Part shown: positions 552-13,137 of the stretch, in pieces | Layout of the letters: each line of letters starts with the position of its first letter | Position numbering within the stretch: position 1 is the first letter of the stretch | NCBI GenBank assembly: GCA_963722255.1 | Contig: CAVRJO010000001.1 | Location: forward strand, 448,001 to 512,000 | Source of the DNA: Candidatus Babeliales bacterium | Lineage (GTDB): Bacteria > Babelota > Babeliae > Babelales > JANWKD01 | Reading direction: 5' to 3' | Length of the DNA stretch: 64,000 nt | The notes under the pieces: model-generated | Told to the model about the DNA's origin: nothing | The model's database searches: none | The model's input: only the letters and a program-made list of their open reading frames with translations | Position numbers and translations under genes: made by a program

Positions 552-628
552 GTGCCCGTAGCTCAGTTGGATAGAGCAACGGATTTCTAATCCGTAGGTC
601 ATAGGTTCGAATCCTATCGGGCACACCA
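552..628 (+). tRNA. tRNA-Arg(UCU)
   Basis: Cloverleaf GTGCCCG...CGGGCAC-A-CCA; anticodon arm ACGGA-TTTCTAA-TCCGT; T-loop GGTTCGAATCC; encoded CCA. Confidence 0.97.
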
Positions 629-2083
629 ATTTCTAGTTTTTACAGATTCAAGTATCATACCAAACACCGGATGTAGCTCTAGATCGAGGTTTCCATCTTT
701 GAATGTACAGTTCGATAGTAAAGCCTCTAAGACTCTTCGTTTTTTCTCTGGATTTCCATTTTTAAACCACAGAGCGGCATTTTTGGCGAGTTCTAAAATA
801 AAATAGGCATTTTCAAGATAATGGCCATCGGCCCTTTGTGCAGAAACAAGCTTCAAACTGAACTCTTCTTTTTCTGCGATCCATTGCCTAGTATGTTTTT
901 GCCAAAACTCCTCACTAATTTTGCCATCAAGTTTATCAAGGTAGGCCTGATCAACTCTTTTTTGTAGAAGCTTAATCTGTTTTTCAAGCTCCCCTACCAA
1001 GTTATTATGATATTCGATCTTATCTTTGAAACTTTCACGCATAGCTTCCAAGACAATTTCTTGGACTTCATCAGTGATATTTATTTGGCCTAACAATGCT
1101 TCAAATTGCGCCTCTAAAGACTCTTGTCTAATATAACCCTGCTTGCAATTGCCCTTATAGCCAGTGCAATGATAGTAGATGTATTTGTTTTTCTTTAATT
1201 CAGCGGTCAATGAGCATCCACAAACTCCACAACTAATGAGATTAGTGTAAGGGAACATGCCTTTTTTTGATTTGCTTTTGCGTGGATTAATAAGAACGTT
1301 TTGGACTCGTTGAAATAGCTCTGGGCTAATTAATGGCTCATGTGAAGCGTTTTCATATTTTTTACCATTCCAATAGAATACGCCCGTATAAAATTCGTTT
1401 TTAAAAATAGTTTCTATCTTGCTGGTATAAAAATTTTTTCCATTTCTATACACCATACCATCAGCCAACATTTTCTTACGCAGAGCCAATAAGGAGTATG
1501 CTCCTGTTGCATACAATTCAAACATTTTTTTAACAAACGGAGCAGCATGAGGATCAACTCTTATCATGCTTTTTCCACTCTCACGTACGTTTAAATATCC
1601 ATATGGAGCGGATGATGGGTAAGTACCTTGAGAAGCTTTCTCGGTCATACCTTTTTTTACTTCTTCTGATAAGTTATCAACATAGTTTTTAGCCATTAAA
1701 GCTCTGATTCCAAAGACAAATTTTTCATTTGAGCGAGAATCCTTACTTAGTATCACATTTTCTTTTACAAGATGAATTGTTATACCTGAATAGATAATAA
1801 GTTCTTCAAGAAGAGCATAATCAGATATGTTTCTCAGTAAGCGATCTGTTTTTTCCACTAAAAGATGCTTAACGCTTTTATCTTCTTCAAGATATTTTAT
1901 CATCTTGTTAAATTGCGTTCGGCCTGCCTTTTTTGCCGTCTCGACATCAATAAACTCTTCAACGATTCTAAAGTTGTTTTTTGAAGCATACTCTTTTAAT
2001 AGCTTTAGCTGGGCAGGAATGGAAAAGCCTTCGTTTTCTTGGTCTTTTGATGATACTCGAGCATAGATGATAGCTTTATTCAT
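614..2083 (-). CDS. large serine recombinase/integrase (resolvase + recombinase + Zn-ribbon)
   Basis: YARVSS catalytic motif, EKTDRLLRN, PYGY, CGVCG...YYHC Zn ribbon, coiled coil; 3' end overlaps the tRNA. Confidence 0.95.
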   Translation of the reverse strand: MNKAIIYARVSSKDQENEGFSIPAQLKLLKEYASKNNFRIVEEFIDVETAKKAGRTQFNKMIKYLEEDKSVKHLLVEKTDRLLRNISDYALLEELIIYSGITIHLVKENVILSKDSRSNEKFVFGIRALMAKNYVDNLSEEVKKGMTEKASQGTYPSSAPYGYLNVRESGKSMIRVDPHAAPFVKKMFELYATGAYSLLALRKKMLADGMVYRNGKNFYTSKIETIFKNEFYTGVFYWNGKKYENASHEPLISPELFQRVQNVLINPRKSKSKKGMFPYTNLISCGVCGCSLTAELKKNKYIYYHCTGYKGNCKQGYIRQESLEAQFEALLGQINITDEVQEIVLEAMRESFKDKIEYHNNLVGELEKQIKLLQKRVDQAYLDKLDGKISEEFWQKHTRQWIAEKEEFSLKLVSAQRADGHYLENAYFILELAKNAALWFKNGNPEKKRRVLEALLSNCTFKDGNLDLELHPVFGMILESVKTRNWCAR

Positions 2084-2092
2084 GTTTATAAT

Positions 2093-2452
2093 CTAATTAT
2101 TATAGTAGCTTTCAAGACCAATTTTTCTTTTGAACCATATCCACCAGGTTGTATTTTTATTATTACGTTTTTCTTCTGGTTTATATGTATAGGTATCGTT
2201 TTGACCATCACAATAACCGATGGGCTTAAAATAAATTATTTTTTCAGAAGTCCCCGTGAAATGCTTATAACCATCATAGCTATCTGTTACCCAAGCTTCA
2301 CCTGTTTGTTGATCAATAACTACAGAACCAGTAGAACTAAAACTTGCAACCTGGTATTTATTATGACTTTGGTTCATAACAAGAAATAAAATAAAAATAA
2401 CTAGAACTGTAGCCCAATTGATACTATCGATATTATCCATTTTCATCCTCAT
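2093..2452 (-). CDS. hypothetical membrane-anchored protein
   Basis: ORF with N-terminal TM helix; co-oriented with and overlapping neighbours. Confidence 0.65.
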   Translation of the reverse strand: MRMKMDNIDSINWATVLVIFILFLVMNQSHNKYQVASFSSTGSVVIDQQTGEAWVTDSYDGYKHFTGTSEKIIYFKPIGYCDGQNDTYTYKPEEKRNNKNTTWWIWFKRKIGLESYYNN

Positions 2453-2685
2453 TTGCTTCTTGCATATGGATTAACAAACTTATATCCATTGCTTGGCTTA
2501 AAATGGCCTCGTGTAGTTTTTGTTTTAATGCGACCATTTACGCTACTTTTTTGACCAAATCCAACATAAGGGGCTTTTGTAGTATAGCCCTTATTGACTT
2601 TGAATGATGACCTTCTAGCAGCATGTATTTCAATAATGCAGATGCATGTAATAACAAAAAAAATCGGGTTAACAAACCTCTTCAT
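2449..2685 (-). CDS. small basic secreted hypothetical protein
   Basis: Signal-like N-terminus (MKRFV...); repeated KGY/RGH..K...YV.PY motif. Confidence 0.6.
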   Translation of the reverse strand: MKRFVNPIFFVITCICIIEIHAARRSSFKVNKGYTTKAPYVGFGQKSSVNGRIKTKTTRGHFKPSNGYKFVNPYARSK

Positions 2686-2730
2686 TTTAATCCTATCAAT
2701 TAGATTGTTGAACAAATTTCATGCCCATTG

Positions 2731-2928
2731 CTACTCAACATCTTCTTGTGAACTTTTCCTAAATTCTTTCTCATAAAGTAACCGAATCCCCTCACAAAAC
2801 AAGGTAGATTTATCGGTTTTATTGCGATTTCTAAGCCGCTTAATGAATACCTCATTTAACAAAGTTTCATCTTCCTCTGACATATAAACAGTAGTTTTCA
2901 TTTTTTTAAGTAATTCTGATTCTTGCAT
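2731..2928 (-). CDS. ribbon-helix-helix (CopG-like) DNA-binding protein
   Basis: KTTVYMSEED beta-strand/helix followed by DKSTLFCEGIRLL; 65 aa; heads the recombinase operon. Confidence 0.6.
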   Translation of the reverse strand: MQESELLKKMKTTVYMSEEDETLLNEVFIKRLRNRNKTDKSTLFCEGIRLLYEKEFRKSSQEDVE

Positions 2929-3143
2929 GTTATTTTCCTGATAAAAGTAAATTTTACTAGGTTAAATATACTTAAAATCCAACGATGCGTCAAGCCACTG
3001 CGCCACCATAAATCCATAACCATTTGACGGCATTTTTCTAAATGATACGATTAATATAAAACACTATTGATTTATAACAATCTAATACATAATTAATATT
3101 TACAATTTGTCGTTATTATTTGCAGCCTTATATGAAGGATATT

Positions 3144-3932
3144 ATGAAAAAACTATTAATTATTGGAATAATTTTTGTGGCAATCTCGAGTACATCATTT
3201 ATTTTGCTAAAATATGTCGCTCAAATAGATACACAATCCTCAAAATATAATATCGATAATAATGAGTTCATCTTTACAAAAGAAGAAGAAAAAGCTCTTT
3301 CACAAAAAAAATATGATTCAATGGATGATTTAATAGTAGATGCGCATTATGGCAATCCTGGAGCTCTATGGATGTTGGGTATGAGCATGCTTACAGGTAG
3401 TGCTGGTTTTCATTTAGATACAGAATCAGCAAATAGTTATTTTGCTCAATCAGCCTCTCTTGGTTTTGCTCCATCTATCAATCAGGTCCACTTCATGTAT
3501 TTAATCGATCTTGAAAATCCTTTTCTCGCCCTTATTTATCTTAACCTTACAGTATCTAGCGGTCATATTGAACTTGCAGGCTATTATAGTAAACTTCGAG
3601 CTGAATTCATAAAAATATATGGGCTAAATACTATGAATGAAATCGAAAAAATAGCGATACACAAAAAAACATTAATTTCTAAATTCTGCAAAAAAATTCA
3701 AGATGATCCATCAAAGTTTATATATCTTACGATGTCTGAATCTGACGGTCTTATAGGAGAAGATGTTCTTTTTGATATGAATTATTGGGAAGGCATAAGA
3801 AATGGCAGCATTGTTACGGGAAATTTAGAAGATTGGCTTAGAATGCCTGATAACTATTGCCTCAAAATTGAAAGGCTCGCTCAAAAAGCAAATCGCAATA
3901 TTGGAAGATTTGCATCATATGTTGATAATTAA
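3144..3932 (+). CDS. Sel1-like repeat protein, membrane-anchored/secreted
   Basis: AHYGNPGALWMLG...G...A..YF..SA.LG..P Sel1 pattern; N-terminal hydrophobic segment; AAGGA RBS. Confidence 0.75.
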   Translation: MKKLLIIGIIFVAISSTSFILLKYVAQIDTQSSKYNIDNNEFIFTKEEEKALSQKKYDSMDDLIVDAHYGNPGALWMLGMSMLTGSAGFHLDTESANSYFAQSASLGFAPSINQVHFMYLIDLENPFLALIYLNLTVSSGHIELAGYYSKLRAEFIKIYGLNTMNEIEKIAIHKKTLISKFCKKIQDDPSKFIYLTMSESDGLIGEDVLFDMNYWEGIRNGSIVTGNLEDWLRMPDNYCLKIERLAQKANRNIGRFASYVDN

Positions 3933-3933
3933 T

Positions 3934-4257
3934 ATGAAAAATATTACTAAATCATGTTTATTTATAGTACTTATCTCTGTGTTAACAATGTTCATTAAGC
4001 GTTCTAATGAAAATTGCTATGACGATAATTTCATTCCTTATGGAATAAAGGCTTTTGATGTTTTTGTTTACAATACTAAGACAGACAAAGAATATTTCGC
4101 TGGTAGTATTGGAACAGATTACACTAACTCTCAAATGAGCCTAAGTAATGCCCAAAGTTTAGCATACGATTTTGCAGAAGCTCATCACCTGAAGAATTGG
4201 GACTATCTTTGTTGCACAGTAACTAATTCATCAAATTGTGTTACAAAAGTTAAGTAG
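3934..4257 (+). CDS. hypothetical exported protein
   Basis: ORF 3868..4257, likely start MKNITK; TM/signal segment; C-terminal WDYLCC...CVTKVK. Confidence 0.6.
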   Translation: MKNITKSCLFIVLISVLTMFIKRSNENCYDDNFIPYGIKAFDVFVYNTKTDKEYFAGSIGTDYTNSQMSLSNAQSLAYDFAEAHHLKNWDYLCCTVTNSSNCVTKVK

Positions 4258-4466
4258 GTATAGATTAACCATAAATGGAGGCGATAAATTTATGAATAGC
4301 AATAAAGCTTTCTCTTTTCGGAGTTATTATGAATAAAGTTATAAAAACATTTCTTTATATAGTATTCTGGCCATATTTGATTTATAAAATAATTGATAAA
4401 TTTGATTTATAATTATTTATCTGTTTTTGCGTTTGCTTAGATATTTCGATAAAAGGAAAAATAGCA

Positions 4467-5096
4467 ATGACCCACTGGGGCTGGTACTGGAAAATTAAAC
4501 GTAAGCATGAACCAAAAGCATTATGTAATTCGTGGCACTTTAATGAAATTGATTCATTTCGAATGTTTAAGAACAAAAGATTAATTCAACTGATTAAAGA
4601 AAGCAGCGACCGTACTAGTTTTGAAATTCCATCATATAACCTCAAAGCAACACTACTAGATAATGATAGTTTGAATGTAACGTATAATAATGGTTCTTAT
4701 GTTATTCCCACAGAAAAAAAGCCTTGCAATTATGGTGGGTATTATTACTTTTTTCATTGCCCCAAATGCGAAAAAAGAATGCGGAAATTATATTGTATGC
4801 AAGGAGAGTATCTTTGTCGGAAATGCTTAAATCTTGGTTACCTTACACAGCGTCTTAGTGCTTCAAATCGATCGCTATTAATGGCAGGCAAAATCAAAAT
4901 GATACTAGAAAACAAAAGTGGTTCTCTTGATAGAAAACCACCTTGGATGAAGAGAAAAACATTCAAAAATCTAAAAGATAAGCACTTTGAATATTATGAA
5001 ATTAAATTTGTAAGAGCACTGCGTGATGAGCTTATCATGTATTATCCAAAACAAAGTGCATTGATTGGATTATACTCCATTCCCCCCTTCAATTAG
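4467..5096 (+). CDS. Zn-finger hypothetical protein typical of genomic islands
   Basis: F.CPKC..R..KLY....LCRKC.NLGY.TQ and KPPWM..KTF motifs. Confidence 0.75.
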   Translation: MTHWGWYWKIKRKHEPKALCNSWHFNEIDSFRMFKNKRLIQLIKESSDRTSFEIPSYNLKATLLDNDSLNVTYNNGSYVIPTEKKPCNYGGYYYFFHCPKCEKRMRKLYCMQGEYLCRKCLNLGYLTQRLSASNRSLLMAGKIKMILENKSGSLDRKPPWMKRKTFKNLKDKHFEYYEIKFVRALRDELIMYYPKQSALIGLYSIPPFN

Positions 5097-6296
5097 TCTC
5101 TTCATTAATCTTAAACCATTTTGCAATTCACCTGTTTTAGCGCGGAGTGAATTTGGCCCTAAGCTGATTTCATTTACAAGATCTTCATAAACAAACCTAC
5201 TTACTGTCCGTTCGCTGATGTAATGTTGTATAAAATTAATTAACGCCTGTTCTTCTTCGCTCCATTCAGGCTTTATTAAGTGTAAATTATTTTGTATTTG
5301 TGTTGGTAACTTTTCTATAATCCAAGCTCTAAGATCTAGTCCTTGTTCTATTGCTTCCCCAATATCTTTACCGATGATAGTAGGATATCTTTGTGCGTGA
5401 GAATAAAGCTGCTTCCATTTATCAAACATGCTATTTCCGGCATCGTCATTATCATGACAAATAAGCAAAACAGTTTTATTACGAGCCAAATGATCAGTTA
5501 CAGGATCAGGTTTTTTGGTACAGCCACCGACAGCTACAATAACGGCAAAATCACCTACAGAATGATGTAATGCATATGCATCGAGTTCAGACTCAACAAC
5601 AACCATTACGGGATGTTTTTTATTGCCAATTATATTAAGGCCATTCATGCTTTCCGATATAGCAACATACTTGGGCAATTCGTCATTTATTTTCCAATCC
5701 CTACGTCGAATTTTTAACCGAATAACCTGATCTTCCTGTTCAATGGTTGGTATAACTATTCCAGCAGGTAACCAGATGTCTTTTTTTAGGCCCCAATCAG
5801 ATCCATACAAGCTTTTGTTTTCAGTAAGCCCCCCTATTTTATATTTTTTGATTGCCTCAATAGGCAAGCCACGCTTATTTAGCACCTGCAAAATATCTTC
5901 TTGCGATAGCATGATCTCATGTGCTTCTTGTACAATCCCCCATGCCTGTTGCATCCAACCATTTGAAGGTTTATTAAGCGTCATAATTGGACTTTCATTT
6001 TTTTTAGTTATAAAAATAGCCGATTTTTGGTCAAGAAGTTTGGCGCCGACATATTCAGCAGCTTCTTTAAAGGAATAACCAAGAAATTCAATACAAAATT
6101 GTATAGAATCACCTCGAGCATCACACTGACGACAAAAATAATAACCGATACAATTCTTTTGTTGCTTGTTCGGTTGAATAACAAAGCGATCTTTACCTCC
6201 GCATTCGGGACAGGAAGAATGGTATTCTCCGCCTTGTGTTGTTGCCACCCATTTAGCCACAATACCTATTCTTTTAACAAGCTCGATTAAAACCAT
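5070..6296 (-). CDS. primase with N-terminal Zn-binding domain (P4 alpha-like) and Toprim domain
   Basis: CPECGGKDRF...FCRQC..GD Zn-binding domain; VVESELDA and CHDNDDAG Toprim motifs. Confidence 0.85.
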   Translation of the reverse strand: MVLIELVKRIGIVAKWVATTQGGEYHSSCPECGGKDRFVIQPNKQQKNCIGYYFCRQCDARGDSIQFCIEFLGYSFKEAAEYVGAKLLDQKSAIFITKKNESPIMTLNKPSNGWMQQAWGIVQEAHEIMLSQEDILQVLNKRGLPIEAIKKYKIGGLTENKSLYGSDWGLKKDIWLPAGIVIPTIEQEDQVIRLKIRRRDWKINDELPKYVAISESMNGLNIIGNKKHPVMVVVESELDAYALHHSVGDFAVIVAVGGCTKKPDPVTDHLARNKTVLLICHDNDDAGNSMFDKWKQLYSHAQRYPTIIGKDIGEAIEQGLDLRAWIIEKLPTQIQNNLHLIKPEWSEEEQALINFIQHYISERTVSRFVYEDLVNEISLGPNSLRAKTGELQNGLRLMKRLIEGGNGV

Positions 6297-6564
6297 AAAC
6301 TACCTACATGTTATTAATTACCCGAATCTGCCCAGATGATGTCCAAGCACAAGACACACCAAAAAGCTGATCCAATCAAACATGTCCATATGGTCCATAC
6401 TTACCATCATCATTCTTATTGTTAAATTTCTTTTTGTTTTTACAGGTATTTCTTTTATGTTTTTTGCACAGATAAAATAATGCATGGTCAGTATGGCCGT
6501 CATGGACATAGCCTTTTCAATAGGGGATTTTTACATTTTTAAATCATGGACACAATTGGCCACA

Positions 6565-8175
6565 CTACAGTTCATCATTAGAGTTATAGGTGTCATTCCA
6601 AATCCTTTCTGTTTCTTTGAACGCCTTACAAAATTCCTTGCGAGTTTGCTCTAGGGATGGAAATATATATTCTCTCACACGCCTGCATTGTATGCTTCTG
6701 CGAGTTTCAGATGTCGATGGGATAAGCTTTTTAAGGGTCATACCAAATTGATTATTTGATTCTGCTTTATGGCCATTGATTCGACACCACGCAACATAAT
6801 CATCGTAAACATCTTTTTTTGGAATTTGTGATTGCCAGACGCCACTTCCAATATTATTATTTTGTCTATTATCATCATCAATCATTCCAATATAGAAACT
6901 ACCATCAAGTAGAGCTTCATAAATATACATCTCAGCAGAAGTTGAACTGCGAAGTTTTATATCAAATGCAGCATCACTAGCAGGTATTTTGCGTGGGTCA
7001 AAATCCGTTAAATCTTCATTAAGTAAATCATAAAGGAGAGCCTCATAACCGCCATCTGTAAGCTGGGTATCTAAAGCCTTAAAATACTCATGATCTTCTT
7101 TACGCTCTTCTGATACACGTAAGACAAAAAAACGTCTATCATCTCGATCAAGGTGAACAGGCCAGTCTTCATTACTGCTCATAATCACATGCTTATAGTT
7201 TCTTACCAAAATTCTGTCTTTACCTTTTGCTTCTATAAGACATGTCTCCTCAGTTATCATCGCTTTAAGAATACCTATCTCTTTTCTATGACCACCCCAA
7301 AATGATTCATTAGCATGAATAAGAACTGCATTTTTTAGATGAAAATTAAAATGCGAAACAAGCTCATATACGTTGCCTAAAGGCGCATAGTGTAGCCCTA
7401 ATAAAACCCCCAATGGATTAACAAAACTGTTTTTACCAACCCCTTGTGTTCCACAAAGCACTAATGCTGTATGCACCCTATCAGGATGCTGAAATATGTA
7501 AGCAAGCCATTTGCGCAAATACAAATAATTACTCGGGTTTTTGGCACATATATTATCGCTAACATGATCCCAATAAAGTGAAGCTGATCCCTGTTTTGGT
7601 TCTTTTGCAAAACCTTTCCATATATTATAAAGACCTTTTGCCTCAATAATTTTTGGATCAGTTGCCGGATCGAAAGTAATGTTTATGTATTCTCGCCTAG
7701 ACGAACTTTTAAGCCAAATCTCTGCTTTAGTCTTCATCTTACCATCGGGACAGCTTACTTGTTTGTTTTCATACTGACTTTTAAAAGATGCCTTACTTTC
7801 AAGAACGAAGTTTTTTCCACCAAAATTAAAATCTTCTTTTTCTGTAAGGATATAAAACTGATCGGTGTGCATTACTGCATGTTTTTGATTAAGTTCATTA
7901 ACAACGTCATCTTCAATCCAAAGAATAGATCGTTCTTCTTCAAGACTACGAAAAGCATTCTGCAACATGATAATGTTCGATGCTTCTGCTTGCCCAATAT
8001 CATCTTCGATTTCTATTGCTAAAAAATCTTTAATTGATTGAGCACCATATCCTATTGCAGCTTTTTCTTCACATAGCTTCTTTTCTTTTTCAAACCATGC
8101 ATCTTTGAGAGCGTCAACATCAATTTTTGGTAAACGCGCTTTTGTATCGTGTCTTTTTGTGGTATCATCGTACAT
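6565..8175 (-). CDS. primase-associated SF3/D5-like helicase (DUF5906-type)
   Basis: Walker A GTQGVGKN, IHANE, IEAKGKD, SSN...DDRRFFV motifs; C-terminal winged-helix-like region. Confidence 0.85.
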   Translation of the reverse strand: MYDDTTKRHDTKARLPKIDVDALKDAWFEKEKKLCEEKAAIGYGAQSIKDFLAIEIEDDIGQAEASNIIMLQNAFRSLEEERSILWIEDDVVNELNQKHAVMHTDQFYILTEKEDFNFGGKNFVLESKASFKSQYENKQVSCPDGKMKTKAEIWLKSSSRREYINITFDPATDPKIIEAKGLYNIWKGFAKEPKQGSASLYWDHVSDNICAKNPSNYLYLRKWLAYIFQHPDRVHTALVLCGTQGVGKNSFVNPLGVLLGLHYAPLGNVYELVSHFNFHLKNAVLIHANESFWGGHRKEIGILKAMITEETCLIEAKGKDRILVRNYKHVIMSSNEDWPVHLDRDDRRFFVLRVSEERKEDHEYFKALDTQLTDGGYEALLYDLLNEDLTDFDPRKIPASDAAFDIKLRSSTSAEMYIYEALLDGSFYIGMIDDDNRQNNNIGSGVWQSQIPKKDVYDDYVAWCRINGHKAESNNQFGMTLKKLIPSTSETRRSIQCRRVREYIFPSLEQTRKEFCKAFKETERIWNDTYNSNDEL

Positions 8176-8195
8176 ATAAAGTCCTCTACTTATTT

Positions 8196-8229
8196 AAAAA
8201 GTCACAGGTTGGAACTATGTGACTTTTTT
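8196..8229. terminator. intrinsic terminator between spoVG-like gene and helicase
   Basis: AAAAAGTCACA-ggttggaacta-TGTGACTTTTTT stem-loop flanked by A/T runs. Confidence 0.7.
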
Positions 8230-8235
8230 TATTGG

Positions 8236-8505
8236 TTATTCAGTTTTTTGCATTACTTCTTCAAATTTTTTAGTTACCGCTTGTTCTATTTGAGTAGCTA
8301 TTTCTTTGTTTATTGGATAAAAAAAATTCAAATTATTTCGAGTATTTTTACGCATGGGATACGTTAGTCGATACCCACCCGATGGCCGTGTAAATATTCC
8401 TATCGAACCCAAATAAACGGCATCTTCAAGAACAAAGCTTGCAAAGCCAACAAGCCCGTTATGGGACTCAACGGGAACAATTTGAATTTCATTTATTTGT
8501 ATCAT
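8236..8505 (-). CDS. SpoVG-family nucleic-acid-binding protein
   Basis: I.EIQI.PV....GLVGFASFVL...I.I......G.RL.YP.RK.....FYPINKE....IE SpoVG pattern. Confidence 0.8.
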   Translation of the reverse strand: MIQINEIQIVPVESHNGLVGFASFVLEDAVYLGSIGIFTRPSGGYRLTYPMRKNTRNNLNFFYPINKEIATQIEQAVTKKFEEVMQKTE

Positions 8506-8653
8506 TAGTTTTCCCCTTTCTTATATCCTCTTTCGGACGAAGGTCCATAACCGCTGCAAAAAAACCTACAAGCTGCTTACGCTCATCAGATGATAAGGGC
8601 CCAGGTTCTCTTGATTGAATATGTATTGTCATGGTTATTTTTTTTTCTTTCAT
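8489..8653 (-). CDS. small hypothetical protein (54 aa, below the ORF-track cutoff)
   Basis: Hand translation MKEKKITMTIHIQSREPGPLSSDERKQLVGFFAAVMDLRPKEDIRKGKTNDTNK*; overlaps the spoVG start. Confidence 0.5.
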   Translation of the reverse strand: MKEKKITMTIHIQSREPGPLSSDERKQLVGFFAAVMDLRPKEDIRKGKTNDTNK

Positions 8654-8763
8654 AGAAACGAGTCTACGAAATGATTTGGGGTGCCGCTGGGGCGCCCCGT
8701 GAGGCTTATGTAATTAACAAAAACGGTGAATTAAAAAAGAAAAGTTCTTAATGAAGTAAATGA

Positions 8764-9978
8764 CTATTGTATTGAATACTTTGGATTAAGCCATATTTTT
8801 TTTATCGGGTTTTTAGCATCGGTGATTCTTGTTTTTTCAAATGCCAATGATAAGCCAATCTTTTTTAGTTGCTTATTTATAGACTTTCGCGTTTCATGCA
8901 GCTCATTCTCTTCTTGAATGCATAAATCTTCTGCAATAGGTAATCCAGCCACCTTCGACCATAAAATTTTATATGATATTGGTTCAGATGGGTTTTTAAT
9001 AAATGCTCGAACAAATCGTCCTGTACGATACTTTGTGTTAAAAGACATTTCGTCGATTCCGTATCGTACTATTACCGTTGTGCCTCGAGAAATAAATGAT
9101 AGGCATTGTTTTGTTGTTGATACAACAATCTTATTGTCATTGATCTCATTCTGTAAGAGCTTGCTGCTGCGAAAATTAAAGAAGATGTGATATCGATTGA
9201 CACCCTTGATTTAAGAAATTCCCATACACGATGCATATGAACCCTGACATTCTTCTATATCAAAAAATTTTTCATCAGATTGCGATTCTTCCATAGCTTT
9301 ATCAAAATTTTCAGCATCTAAGCTTAGATAATAAGCCGCTGAATGATGATTACTTTGCAAGAAGCCCTGTATTTTATTCGGCCTACTCTTAAGTTCGTAA
9401 AATAAATAGAACCGAATAAGATAAGCAAAGCTATTATAAAGACTTGATTTTCTATCGCGATCAAAATTTATTATTTCTTGATGCATTCTTGAAAAACTTG
9501 GCGAAAATATATACTCAATAATATTATTGCCTTTAGTAAGCCTAATTAAATTCTTTAGAATTTGGGTATGTTTTGTTGGGTGATCATGTTTGATTAAGTT
9601 ACACATTTGACGAATAATTTCGTACATATCATATATCTGTTCCGCACTGTTGGCTGGGCATCGATTTTTAATTTTGTGAATTTCTTCAATACCTATAGAT
9701 AATATAGGAATAACAGCTTGATATCCCTCGATTAAAGCTATAGCTATTTCAATCTCACTCAAAGCTTTAACTTTAATCTCGACAAGTGGGATTAATGCTT
9801 CTCTGCCCATATTTGCTACAACGTGACGATCATTCTCTAGTATTGGACTTGTGGCAAGCTCTTTGGCAAATTCACTAGCTGCGGGCATATAGTTTTTTGG
9901 GCTTAATGCTATAAGGCTACGATCATATGCACCTTGCATATGATCATGAAGTTTTTTTGATTCTATGTTGTTCATCAA
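8764..9978 (-). pseudogene. ~404-codon gene with C-terminal winged-HTH-like domain, split by one in-frame TAA
   Basis: ORFs 9211..9978 and 8764..9048 are in the same frame and the intervening 9049-9210 is stop-free; only the TAA at 9211-9213 interrupts. Confidence 0.65.
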
Positions 9979-10128
9979 TACACCTTCTTGAATAATTTAA
10001 TAAATATCAAATTATTTTATCACAACTTTTGATACCACTACCAACAATTTATATCACCGGTATTAGTTTCTTTATTGCAAAGATTATGCTTTCACTAATC
10101 GAGAAGTTGCGGAAGTACTCCGAAGGGC

Positions 10129-10405
10129 ACACCAGCCTACGCCAAGGCTACGGCTGGCACGCCAATTTTTTTAAGGAATGGCAAATAGATTTTAATATGG
10201 CGTAGGCTGTCCGCCGAAATAAGCGAGCATTAGCGAGACACGAAGGCTGGACTGGCGAGGTCAATAATTTGGTGAATCCTTTTTTGTGCTACGCTTTACA
10301 AGCTTACGGCTGGCGCGGCCAGTTTTTTAAACGAAATGATATTAATAGAAAATTGATAGCGTTTGCTGTCCGCCGGAGCCTTGGCGCAGGAGGACTGGCA
10401 GGTCA
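10129..10405 (+). repeat. GC-rich structured repeat array (units A1,B1,A2,B2) upstream of GIY-YIG copy 1
   Basis: A units CCAGCCTACGCCAAGGCTACGGCTGGCACGCCAATTTTTTTAA; B units GCGTAGGCTGTCCGCCG...GGACTGGC, partly reverse-complementary to A. Confidence 0.85.
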
Positions 10406-10424
10406 GTTATTTAGGGACTTTACA

Positions 10425-10667
10425 GTGCATTATGTATACATAATTCAATCTTTAAATCTTCAAGATCAAATATATGTTGGCTGTACCGAAGATTTAAAAA
10501 AACGTCTTTCAAATCACAATACAGGCACTACACCCCATACAGCAAAATATTTACCTTGGAAATTAATTTTTTATGCAGGCTTTGAAAATAAGTTTAAAGC
10601 GTATGAATTTGAGAAATTTTTAAAATCTGGTTCTGGTAGAGAATTTAGAAATAAGAGATTGTTATGA
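10425..10667 (+). CDS. small GIY-YIG nuclease (YhbQ/UPF0213-like), copy 1
   Basis: GTG start; HYVYIIQS...YVGCT.DL.KRL..HN.G...T....PW.L..Y..F.....A..FE..LKSGSGR; 80 aa. Confidence 0.92.
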   Translation: MHYVYIIQSLNLQDQIYVGCTEDLKKRLSNHNTGTTPHTAKYLPWKLIFYAGFENKFKAYEFEKFLKSGSGREFRNKRLL

Positions 10668-11140
10668 ATATAAAAAATATTAAGCTCTTTGAGCCCTTAT
10701 GTAAATTTCTTCTTTCTATTTTGTTTATTAAATTTACAATTAGCATCATGCATAACTCTACTTTTGAAATTTCTTGGCAAAGCTTTCTTTTTATTGTACT
10801 TATTTTTGTAAGCATCAATATGCCCAGAATTATTAGGCTATTCATTGGAGCTGAAGGATTGGAAATTGAATTGGATAAAATTGAAACAACAAAAAAAGAG
10901 ATTATTGAAATTCAAAAAGATATCAAAAATACATATAAACAAATGTTGCATTTGTTTGTTGCTTTCATAGAAAGCACAAAACGGCAAACCTGGAGCGGAC
11001 CGCCTAATTATGATGAATTAATTTCAATGATTAATGCAAATTGCAAGAATCAAGGCTTTACTAAAACTGACACAGATTATGTTTTTGCGCATAAAACTTT
11101 ATGGGAAGAAAAAGACAAAAAAACAAATAAAAGAAATTAA
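10664..11140 (+). CDS. hypothetical membrane protein (2 TM + coiled coil)
   Basis: ATGA overlap with the GIY-YIG stop; two hydrophobic helices. Confidence 0.65.
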   Translation: MNIKNIKLFEPLCKFLLSILFIKFTISIMHNSTFEISWQSFLFIVLIFVSINMPRIIRLFIGAEGLEIELDKIETTKKEIIEIQKDIKNTYKQMLHLFVAFIESTKRQTWSGPPNYDELISMINANCKNQGFTKTDTDYVFAHKTLWEEKDKKTNKRN

Positions 11141-11525
11141 ACTCTAATTGGATGAACTTTTTTATCAAAAATAATCTTTTGAAAAATATCTTACTTTCTT
11201 TTCTTAATGTTTATGGTTATTGAAAACCATCCTTGGATTCGGAACAAATAAAATTGGTTAAGCTGTGTAACAGCTCTCTTGCTCATCAGCATATGTTTCA
11301 GCGGAAATAGGATTGCATGAAGCAAACCAATTTAGTGGGGTACGATGCAGAATCTGAGTTCTGTTGAGCAAGGACATGAGCGTTCCTTTGAAGAAGAGAG
11401 TACTTTGATTACTACAGGAAGAAGTATATGCGATTTGGAAATAAATACAATGAATACTGAGCAAAACCGTTAATACTGGATACCACTAAGTGACACTTTT
11501 CTTTTTTTACTTTAAAGACTTCAAA

Positions 11526-12302
11526 CTAAGATTTTTTTAGGTGATCTTTAATAGCATTAGCGATATCAATATATTTATTACTATCATAGCGGGAACAACC
11601 GGCAGCTTTTTTTTCAGCATCGTCAAGCGCTCTTTTGCATATATCAATTGTAGAATAAGGAAGAAGAGCTTTAACAATATCAGTACGGCCATATTCTGCA
11701 GCATACATGAGTGCTGTTTGTCCATTATGATCTTTAGCATTAAGATCAGCTCCAGCAGCTATAAGAGCTTTAACAATATCAGTACGGCCATATTCTGCAG
11801 CTATTATGAGTGCAGTAGAATAATCATTACTTTTAGCATTAAGATCAGCTCCAGCAGCTATAAGAGCTTTAATGATATCAGTATGGCCGTTTTTTGCAGC
11901 TACTATGAGTGCTGTTTTTCCGTACCCATTATCTTTAGCATTAAGATCAGCTCCAGCAGCTATAAGAGCTTTAATGATATCAGTATGGCCTTTTGCTGCA
12001 GCATGTATGAGTGCTGTCCAATTATAATTATTTTTAGCATTAACATCAGCTCCAGCAGCTATAAGAGCTTTAACAATATCAGTACGGCCATATTGTGCAG
12101 CAAACATGAGTGCTGTGTACCCATCATCTTTAGTATTAACATCAGCTCCAGCAGCTATAAGAGTTTTAACAGCTTCGGTATTGCCATTTATCGCGGCATC
12201 AAAGAGTTGATCGCCAAGATCTCTTTGCGTTAAAGCGGATGCAGTAGAAGCAGCAAAAAGCGCAAGAGTTAGCATTAGTAGAGCATTTTTTAACAATTTC
12301 AT
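11526..12302 (-). CDS. secreted ankyrin-repeat protein
   Basis: Signal peptide plus about 6 near-identical repeats TALxxAA..G.TDI.KALIAAGADxNAK. Confidence 0.95.
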   Translation of the reverse strand: MKLLKNALLMLTLALFAASTASALTQRDLGDQLFDAAINGNTEAVKTLIAAGADVNTKDDGYTALMFAAQYGRTDIVKALIAAGADVNAKNNYNWTALIHAAAKGHTDIIKALIAAGADLNAKDNGYGKTALIVAAKNGHTDIIKALIAAGADLNAKSNDYSTALIIAAEYGRTDIVKALIAAGADLNAKDHNGQTALMYAAEYGRTDIVKALLPYSTIDICKRALDDAEKKAAGCSRYDSNKYIDIANAIKDHLKKS

Positions 12303-12620
12303 AATAAAAATCCAATAAATAACGTGTTTGAAAAGTGCTATCCGAAATTAAAATGAGCAGTCAAATAGCTCCAAAATTATTAAATTAGAATAGCGGTGAC
12401 CAAAATAGAAACCCCAGTGAAAAAATTCTGCCTTATTATTTTTGGAAAGTCAAACCCGGGAATGCACCAATCACTTGCAAAGTGTTCGATTCTATAAAAT
12501 TGATGAATAATAATTCTAGTAAATTTTTAGCTCAATATTTAACTCTCGAAACACCGTCTGGACATGCTGTAACGTAAAATCTATAATTATAGTATTGTTT
12601 CTGAATGCATCCACTATGTG

Positions 12621-12756
12621 ACACCAGCCTACGCCAAGGCTCCGGCTGGCACGCCAATTTTTTTAAGGAATGGCAAATAGATTTTGTAGCGTAGGCTGTC
12701 CGCCGTAGCTTGCCAAGCCGGAAGGCGTGGATAAGCGAAGGCTGGACTGGCAGGCC
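12621..12756 (+). repeat. second copy of structured repeat (A3,B3) upstream of GIY-YIG copy 2
   Basis: 12621-12685 matches 10129-10193 at 64/65 nt; B unit follows. Confidence 0.9.
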
Positions 12757-12792
12757 ATTCTCTAATAAGTTTTTATCCTTTTGGTATATCAA

Positions 12793-13035
12793 ATGCATTA
12801 TGTATATATTATTCAATCAATTAATCACTCTAATGAGACATATGTTGGTTGCACTGAAAATTTAAAAAAACGTCTTTCTAATCACAATGCGGGTACAACT
12901 GCTCATACTGCCAAATACTTACCTTGGAAACTGATTTTTTATGCTGCTTTTGAAGATAAAATTAAAGCGTATGAGTTTGAAGAATTTTTAAAATCAGGAT
13001 CGGGTAGGGAATTTAGAAATAAAAAATTAATATGA
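12793..13035 (+). CDS. small GIY-YIG nuclease, copy 2
   Basis: 80 aa; 65/80 residues identical to copy 1 by manual alignment. Confidence 0.92.
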   Translation: MHYVYIIQSINHSNETYVGCTENLKKRLSNHNAGTTAHTAKYLPWKLIFYAAFEDKIKAYEFEEFLKSGSGREFRNKKLI

Positions 13036-13137
13036 ATTTCACTAAAGCTTCAGCTGGCAAGCCAGTTTTTTAATGAAGGTGAGTAAAGTTAAACCAAAAT
13101 CTTTTATAGCAAAAGCTATTAGTCGAAAGCCTCTGAC

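Follow-up and report, generated by a model that had tools for sequence, protein, structure and literature searches.

The stretch of DNA analysed here, called the window throughout, comprises 64,000 nucleotides (nt) of contig CAVRJO010000001.1 from a Candidatus Babeliales bacterium, and contains two genes for small GIY-YIG nucleases, GIY1 and GIY2, each preceded by a leader built of hairpins. Judged from comparison of sequences across genomes, these are two members of a cassette family that lives directly behind transfer RNA (tRNA) and transfer-messenger RNA (tmRNA) genes across bacteria. By analogy with described systems, the best reading is that the cassette is a hairpin-and-nuclease element of the Ssn or REPIN/RAYT kind, anchored to tRNA ends, and we assign this a probability of roughly 0.6.

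The genomic surroundings of the nuclease gene were surveyed using one genome per species, giving 569 relatives among 602 candidate stretches. The best 80 loci of one search, which come from Alphaproteobacteria, Verrucomicrobiota, Acidobacteriota, Patescibacteria and others, were examined. A co-oriented tRNA gene lies 82-435 nt upstream of the nuclease gene at 60 of these 80 loci, with 24 different anticodons represented; four of the remaining 20 loci have a co-oriented tmRNA, and one more has a convergent tmRNA. Among 40 genomes of Babeliales relatives, the gene is present in 29, often in several copies, many with internal stops, and was not found in the other 11. Co-oriented tRNA genes stand 15-460 nt upstream at 18 of the 28 Babeliales loci with a gene match that were fetched. 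In the window's own genome (G000), about two thirds of the 36 tRNAs carry a GC-rich hairpin trailer starting right after CCA. The third GIY gene of this genome is found behind a tRNA-Asp, with a leader of the same build, and the fourth comes after two tandem leaders that begin at a relic with the end ...CGCCA. The initial annotation of this DNA had assigned the module to tRNA 3′ ends, and this is right in general: in addition to the 80 loci, 23 of 28 matches to the hairpin in the own genome are linked to a tRNA or tmRNA. For the window itself, the assignment is historical. In the literature searched, which left most subscription journals outside its scope, we found no paper that connects tRNA ends with small GIY-YIG genes or with hairpins of this kind.

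A common plan can be recognised in the leaders. The tRNA CCA is followed by NNN-CTTCG, a small stem-loop and CTACG-N′N′N′-TGG, and then by a short hairpin whose 5′ arm overlaps this TGG. Further on stands CGAAG-N′N′N′-TGG, the exact complement of the start, and then a hairpin of the form G(T/C)CC..CGWAG..CGAAG..GG(A/G)C, with the start codon of the gene 10-40 nt after this top-strand hairpin. The shared structural object, which we call the H hairpin, is asymmetric (stem-CGWAG-inner stem and loop-CGWAG-stem), and its facing CGWAG strands pair as G.A / W.W / A.G. It is present twice per leader in inverted orientation, such that the first hairpin, when the bottom strand is read, has the same build as the final one on the top strand, and the stem base of the bottom-strand copy is formed by the complement of the tRNA CCA. 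The heptamer GCGAAGC is frequent in the hairpin arms, and d(GCGAAGC) is an unusually stable DNA mini-hairpin.

A bottom-strand H motif is found in 56 of the 80 leaders, beginning exactly at CCA in 49, and a top-strand one in 50, where the median distance from CCA is 66 nt; after shuffling, fewer than 1 leader in 80 matches. The reverse complement of the three post-CCA bases, with TGG after it, is found close by in 62 of the 80 leaders (permutation controls: mean 2.6, maximum 7), and a 9-mer complement lies further on in 57 of 80 (permutation controls: mean 7.2, maximum 13), with 17 different post-CCA triplets among the 80. The stems covary, both across these leaders and in an alignment of 91 hairpins, where the covariation score is 0.468 compared to 0.161 after shuffling (0 of 500 as high) and collapses when the pairing partners are slid, although the figure of 0.468 is partly built in, as the alignment took in only hairpins with a 4+2 bp complement. 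Hardly any wobble pairs occur in the stems, about 10 in ~1000 cells when the outermost pair is set aside, which fits DNA better than RNA. DNA folding of single leaders gave unremarkable z-scores of −0.8 to −2.0, so the support for the structure is comparative and not thermodynamic.

A covariance model of the hairpin, R1, identifies 28 H copies in the 1.62-Mb genome. Fourteen adjoin the end of a tRNA or tmRNA gene, all on the opposite strand, and two more (A1 and A3) adjoin displaced tRNA-Arg ends. Six are same-strand copies 62-220 nt downstream of such a gene, with B2 as a seventh, and five are found elsewhere. Copy number in the relatives ranges from 0 to 87: all 29 gene-bearing relatives have copies (1-87 each), whereas of the 11 relatives in which the gene was not found, 4 have H matches and 7 do not. 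The co-occurrence in relatives and the positions of the 28 own-genome matches tie the hairpin statistically to the gene and to tRNA ends; together with the covariation, this is the outcome that the tests named in the initial annotation called for. We also observed that ARAGORN predicts two tmRNA genes 2 kb apart in this genome (G000 C1:795232-795599 and C1:797383-797822), each with an H hairpin adjoining its 3′ end on the opposite strand. A second trailer family was seen behind six tRNAs of G000 (e.g. C1:63511-63586 and C1:128770-128844), with the order CCA-GTCATTTC-loop-GAAATGAC-TGG and then CAGGCCAG. It is without the CGWAG motif, and its stem is likewise based on CCA; the initial GTCATT is reminiscent of the NTS repeat of Neisseria, but the published SRM pattern is not matched.

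Pfam and the repeat finder both confirm that the two genes of 80 amino acids (aa) and their leader repeats, reported in the initial annotation, are real (Table 1). The proteins score 60.7 and 64.6 bits against PF01541, where the cut-off is 22.6, placing them in the GIY-YIG superfamily, and the domain spans residues 1-72 of 80, making these single-domain proteins of less than 150 aa. Residues Y5, R27, H31 and E63 are invariant across 20 relatives, and Y17 is conserved in at least 90%. In NCBIfam, the only match for the nuclease is a sub-threshold one to a group I intron endonuclease family (TIGR01453, 19 bits, cut-off 56). The two proteins are identical at 64 of 80 positions, one fewer than had been claimed; their synonymous divergence (dS) is about 1.5, and the ratio of nonsynonymous to synonymous substitution rates (dN/dS) is 0.07. 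In the protein tree they form a clade of their own together with one gene from genome G003, so we consider GIY1 and GIY2, on this sequence evidence, to be old local paralogues. The initial annotation had presented the module as occurring twice, and for local paralogues in one clade this does not hold as independent evidence.

Upstream of both genes the DNA is G+C-rich, in a genome of 34% G+C. The repeat finder bears out the reported identity of 64/65 over the first 65 nt of the leaders (10129-10193 and 12621-12685) and the four copies of the A unit (starting at 10143, 10299, 12635 and 13043, the last being degenerate), and it also detects three copies of the segment that opens the B unit. A variable loop had been ascribed to the B hairpins, and their interiors do differ between copies, wholly so between leaders 1 and 2. 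B1 has a long interior with CGAAA/CGAAG arms, and in G004 the same B interior comes straight after the tRNA; the B3 interior matches, as its reverse complement, an insert that is common in the tRNA trailers of G000. The CCAGCC/GGCTGG hairpin is present in the leader as described, and the long-range pairing proposed to exclude it also exists, albeit over 12 nt (10133-10144 with 10198-10209) and not 11 bp. Two of the four A units have T hairpins flagged as terminator-like; the region has 3 terminator-like sites compared to 2.3 expected, and the T runs are absent in GC-rich relatives. In Rfam, the tRNA is the sole match at gathering score in the window, and the leaders of 20 loci give nothing at E ≤ 1.

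Table 1 Features of the nuclease cassettes and the neighbouring tRNA-Arg region. Positions are those of the window; open reading frames are abbreviated as ORFs.
Feature	Position	Strand	Basis or remark
tRNA-Arg(TCT), live	552..628	+	ARAGORN; Rfam tRNA 77.4 bits; only tRNA in the window
Integrated island, about 9.5 kb, between tRNA and leader 1	614..10124	.	ORFs, families, direct repeat
Displaced tRNA-Arg 3′ end (GGGCACACCA)	10125..10134	+	Right junction of the island
Hairpin A1, H-type	10130..10159	-	CCA/TGG is the stem base; R1 E 6.5e-8 (G000:C1:458130-458159 minus)
Short hairpin T1 (TGGCACGCCA) and T run	10155..10172	+	5′ arm overlaps A1 3′ arm
Exact complement of post-CCA segment (10198-10209), then hairpin B1 (10209-10252)	10198..10252	+	Inverted repeat
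Second leader unit: truncated A2, terminator-like T2 (10308-10320), hairpin B2 (10367-10396)	10287..10396	+	B2 R1 E 4.5e-4
GIY1, intact 80-aa single-domain GIY-YIG nuclease gene	10425..10667	+	GTG start; Pfam PF01541 E 1.6e-16
Relic, conserved ~80 nt, ends GACACCA	12548..12626	+	Copies in G003, G004, G001 (two)
Hairpin A3, H-type	12622..12651	-	Adjoins CCA of the relic; R1 E 5.5e-7 (G000:C1:460622-460651 minus)
Complement segment and hairpin B3 (12698-12747)	12687..12747	+	Repeat finder
GIY2, intact 80-aa GIY-YIG nuclease gene	12793..13035	+	ATG start; Pfam PF01541 E 1e-17
A4: degenerate A 3′ arm (75% identity) and terminator-like hairpin (13052-13067)	13043..13074	+	Behind GIY2

From ACACCA to the B 5′ arm, leaders 1 and 2 are identical save for one base and one small indel. 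At a dS of 1.5 neutral DNA would be scrambled, yet the leaders have kept 64 of 65 positions, which at the sequence level points to recent gene conversion or to very strong constraint on the hairpin module.

Some other open frames were noted nearby. A 158-aa ORF at 10664-11140, with a hydrophobic N terminus and no family match, has an ATG that overlaps the GIY1 stop (ATGA), and after it comes an ankyrin-repeat gene on the minus strand (11526-12302). A fifth small GIY-YIG ORF is found in G000 at C1:725306-725521 (open frame 100 aa, Pfam E 3e-12); since it was missed by tblastn with GIY1 or GIY2, it is judged from its sequence to belong to a different small GIY-YIG family.

The window also records how the cassettes came to be separated from their tRNA. 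The initial annotation had both leaders begin at ACACCA, taken as the end of the live tRNA-Arg; they do begin at this sequence, but in leader 1 it belongs to a displaced copy and in leader 2 to a relic. The CCA at 10132-10134 is not that of the live tRNA, which lies 9.5 kb upstream. A 10-nt direct repeat, GGGCACACCA, occurs at 619-628 and 10125-10134 (2 matches in the window, 0.06 expected), and its presence at the tRNA end and at this one other position indicates that an island of about 9.5 kb has integrated at the tRNA end. The island encodes a large serine recombinase of 489 aa (614-2083, minus strand), which overlaps the last 15 nt of the tRNA-Arg and has an NCBIfam match of XisF/Ccr type at E 7.5e-31, below the family cut-off. 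It also carries a primase-like ORF (5070-6296, minus) and a DUF5906/D5-like helicase (6565-8175, minus; Pfam DUF5906/Pox_D5), and several small ORFs without family are found there too.

The relic before leader 2 resembles the T arm and the 3′ strand of the acceptor of tRNA-Arg in its 3′ part. It also contains a near-consensus promoter-like site (TGGACA-17-TATAAT, 12559-12587, 11/12 in a promoter scan). Its copies in G003, G004 and G001 are each followed by a hairpin trailer, and the sequence is read as a decayed tRNA end that an older insertion probably left behind. A simple tandem duplication was considered as the source of ACACCA in leader 2 and was rejected, since synteny with G001, G003 and G004 shows a conserved tRNA-end relic. 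We also note a T-arm-like hairpin in the relic, and its promoter-like site may drive GIY2. Co-transcription with the tRNA, which the initial annotation expected, fails for the present arrangement: the island splits copy 1 from the tRNA, and copy 2 stands after the relic with its promoter-like site.

The related genomes show other states of the same position. G004 has a leader with the B1 interior, and then a GIY gene, immediately behind its copy of this tRNA. In G003 the place is taken by another island, whose recombinase is only 33% identical, and leader and gene are found beyond it. In G001 there is only a hairpin trailer behind the same tRNA, without the gene. From this synteny, the cassettes would originally have stood at the 3′ end of tRNA-Arg(TCT) and would have been displaced by islands that later entered that end, with the displaced tRNA ends (GGGCACACCA and ...GACACCA) marking the old junctions and the leaders of the two old paralogues becoming homogenised recently over about 90 nt. 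Among the sequencing runs listed as containing this DNA none is an RNA run; the best DNA run has 24% of the sequence words, and the seven others have 5-7% each. Assembly of four sequencing runs gave short contigs in which the island is almost uncovered, and no contig joins the tRNA to leader 1. As a separate observation, locus L063 (1326-1500) of an uncultured bacterium has an insert of ~88 nt behind tRNA-Arg(TCT), then a second tRNA-end copy (GGCGCACCA) and a leader of Babeliales type, which makes another displaced tRNA end before a cassette.

The family shows turnover at the tRNA ends that it occupies. On a tree of 109 proteins, built from 79 columns and with few supported branches, the tRNA partner changes at least 45 times, compared to 59-67 in shuffles, so that partners are clustered, and to a minimum of 25. 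Proteins from different phyla nest together, and near-identical proteins stand behind Ala, Arg and Ile tRNAs in Acidobacteriota. We examined 29 loci at the tRNA-Ala(GGC) of Bradyrhizobium, of which 28 hold the tRNA end; the locus of one unpublished genome was left out before the count. Type I genes number 20 at this site, of which about 6 are broken; the 4 type II genes, one of which is broken, have different hairpin arms. The other 4 of the 28 loci are hairpin-only, one keeping the last ~25 nt of the gene. Two lineages (L188, L189, L176 and L179 compared to L164-L175) are found at the same tRNA end, with proteins that start MWYVYIIRS and MKYVYILES and hairpin arms CGCTTCGCC and GCCTTCGCT. Similarly, within the window's genus, a tRNA-Gln has the full cassette behind it in G001 and only the first hairpins in G000, with the same downstream gene in both. 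Going by these sequences, the tRNA-Ala and tRNA-Gln sites display the pattern of gain, decay and loss that is typical of a selfish gene.

Among described systems, the closest in several respects is SsnA of Neisseria meningitidis. According to Chenal et al. (2025, PMC11893778), SsnA is a 94-aa single-domain GIY-YIG enzyme that binds and cuts single-stranded DNA (ssDNA) beside the NTS/SRM hairpin, is inactive on duplex DNA and RNA, does not bind RNA, and co-occurs with hundreds of repeats. Set beside that account, the Babeliales cassette is alike in its single-domain enzyme (about 80-94 aa in the two systems), in its catalytic positions (Y5, Y17 and E63 here, Y6, Y17 and E64 in SsnA) and in having an imperfect cognate hairpin that numbers tens to hundreds of copies, is found together with the gene and is concentrated next to it, a trait of Ssn systems that the 28 copies here share. 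It differs in its motif, which is stem-CGWAG-stem-CGWAG-stem and not SRM, in having both hairpins upstream and mutually inverted, where the Ssn arrangement described in that source has one on each side, and in being anchored where tRNA and tmRNA genes end, at their last base. The main text of PMC11893778 does not contain the word 'tRNA', and its searched supplements, one file excepted, have it only in gene descriptions.

Membership of Ssn is defined in that paper, as far as the parts used here go, by a top CDD match to cd10448 or a tblastn E < 1e-10 to SsnA. Its supplementary data 4 lists Mesorhizobium neociceri and M. tianshanense as NO by tblastn, YES for cd10448 by psiblast and NO for a CDD score >100, Bradyrhizobium tropiciagri and B. 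liaoningense as YES/YES/YES, and Babela massiliensis as NO throughout. Relatives of the window's protein occur in the same Mesorhizobium and Bradyrhizobium species, the M. neociceri genome giving just one match. These listings suggest a peripheral position in or beside cd10448, although the table may refer to other assemblies or to a different gene as the homologue.

REP/RAYT systems, which PMC11893778 also discusses in the parts used here, provide the other comparison. The cassette shares with REP/REPIN-RAYT systems an inverted doublet of imperfect palindromes able to fold as one long hairpin, and repeats that are dispersed in intergenic DNA and tied to a nuclease gene that they flank. The enzyme is different, being a GIY-YIG protein and no HUH/Y1 transposase. 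RAYTs are HUH/Y1 enzymes related to IS200/IS605 transposases, and REPs are not, to our knowledge, anchored to tRNA ends. Of the options in the initial annotation, a REP/RAYT-like system fits best, given a dispersed inverted hairpin repeat that co-occurs with a nuclease. By sequence profile, the nearest solved structures are SLX1 (7cq2) and UPF0213 (1zg2; the family of BH0048 and EF2693), both at E 3.9e-9. SLX1 is a resolvase of branched duplex DNA that carries a RING domain and has a partner, and we know of no repeat or tRNA link for SLX1 or UPF0213. The free-standing homing endonucleases of the Tev/Seg type combine a nuclease with a C-terminal DNA-binding domain and cut duplex DNA, whereas the protein here is an 80-aa catalytic domain alone with hairpin repeats. 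SegB of phage T4, as described in the part of PMC2330249 used here, is similarly a GIY-YIG gene among tRNA genes with a selfish pattern of gain, decay and loss.

Beyond cassette anatomy, tRNA/tmRNA association and turnover, which were observed in the comparisons above, we infer a chemistry and a mode of movement. The unit consists of the bottom-strand H hairpin, the short hairpin, the post-CCA complement, the top-strand H hairpin and a gene for the catalytic domain only. By analogy with the action of SsnA on NTS, the enzyme may recognise and nick the folded H hairpin in ssDNA. The inverted H pair might act like a REPIN doublet, and through nicking and repair the hairpins would be copied, made uniform and spread. 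In the long run, the same copying could replace a cassette or move it between tRNA ends.

Several observations weigh against this reading of the cassette as a mobile element. The nicking mechanism is borrowed from SsnA and is our inference by analogy, and the published SRM pattern, which matches the NTS consensus as we coded it, has 0 matches in the 1.62-Mb genome (shuffles gave 1-4) and at 0 of 110 homologous loci (330 kb). The H motif is not enriched downstream of the gene, and no closing hairpin was found there at the 80 loci. None of the 28 Bradyrhizobium tRNA-Ala(GGC) loci is an empty site, and neither a clean insertion boundary nor a target duplication was seen. The relatives do not count as independent genomes, a single search supplied the 80 loci as its best matches, and the pre-selection behind the covariation score belongs here as well. 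Finally, purifying selection on the GIY genes is strong, with a dN/dS of 0.06-0.10 here and a median of 0.06 over 72 Bradyrhizobium pairs of intact copies, and the closest homologues across Babeliales families keep tRNA-Arg(TCT) as their partner (L033, L034, L036, L061, L063 and L072).

Strong purifying selection and a kept tRNA partner are equally expected of a useful host gene, and a domesticated function is the rival that we take most seriously, although we think it improbable. Here, the nuclease would be useful at heavily transcribed tRNA loci and no longer mobile, for example in processing ssDNA or hairpin DNA, with the hairpins serving as its sites and as terminators or processing signals of the tRNA. 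The gene is indeed kept at one site in 24 of 28 Bradyrhizobium loci, the T hairpins with their T runs look like terminators in an AT-rich genome, and trailers starting at CCA are common among the own tRNAs. However, the T run is missing in GC-rich carriers, and the gene was not found in 11 of 40 relatives while others have several copies, many with internal stops. In Bradyrhizobium, two unrelated lineages share one site and about 7 of their 24 genes are broken, and the tree requires at least 20 extra partner switches and places proteins of different phyla close together.

That the leader acts as RNA, as the 3′ trailer of a tRNA precursor and the 5′ leader of the nuclease mRNA, seems to us less probable again. 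It sits between a strong tRNA promoter and the ORF, it offers mutually exclusive pairings (CCA hairpin, T hairpin and long-range helix), and a top-strand B hairpin with G.A mismatches precedes the start codon by 10-40 nt, which could together make an attenuator, a processing site, an autoregulatory binding site or a guide. Yet the tRNA-proximal hairpin fits the motif only on the bottom, untranscribed-sense strand (14 of 14 here), wobble pairs are almost absent, the hairpin also occurs dispersed away from genes on either strand, and the leaders match no Rfam family. SsnA, moreover, does not bind RNA according to the parts of PMC11893778 used here. For the guide RNA partner suggested in the initial annotation we found nothing in favour, with hairpins that read correctly only on opposite strands, few wobbles and an SsnA that lacks RNA binding. 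It is very improbable that nothing general is involved and that the region merely combines one local duplication with leftovers of an island attachment site. The single clade of GIY1, GIY2 and the G003 gene agrees with this, and island junctions explain both ACACCA copies, but it is contradicted by the recurrence of this architecture at 64 of 80 loci from many phyla and behind other tRNAs of this genome. Returning to the hairpin-and-nuclease element, we hold a more specific version only tentatively, with the odds somewhat against it: a selfish REPIN-like class in which the covarying stem sets the ssDNA nick site and the CCA built into the hairpin provides homing to tRNA and tmRNA ends.

On this more specific version, the family would be a natural structure-guided ssDNA nuclease system, undescribed so far and spread over the tRNA ends of many phyla. 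If the hairpin-and-nuclease reading holds, a substantial proportion of the tRNA and tmRNA genes of bacteria carry a small passenger that is annotated as a 'hypothetical GIY-YIG protein' and a 'terminator'. The Ssn principle would be extended to a second hairpin code with a precise genomic address, and there would be a testable route to the spread and homogenisation of REP-type repeats. The system also suggests compact hairpin-specific ssDNA cutters with a readable specificity. The cassette also bears on how tRNA-linked islands are interpreted: in the window, it marks the original flank of the tRNA, so that the order of island insertions can be read off.

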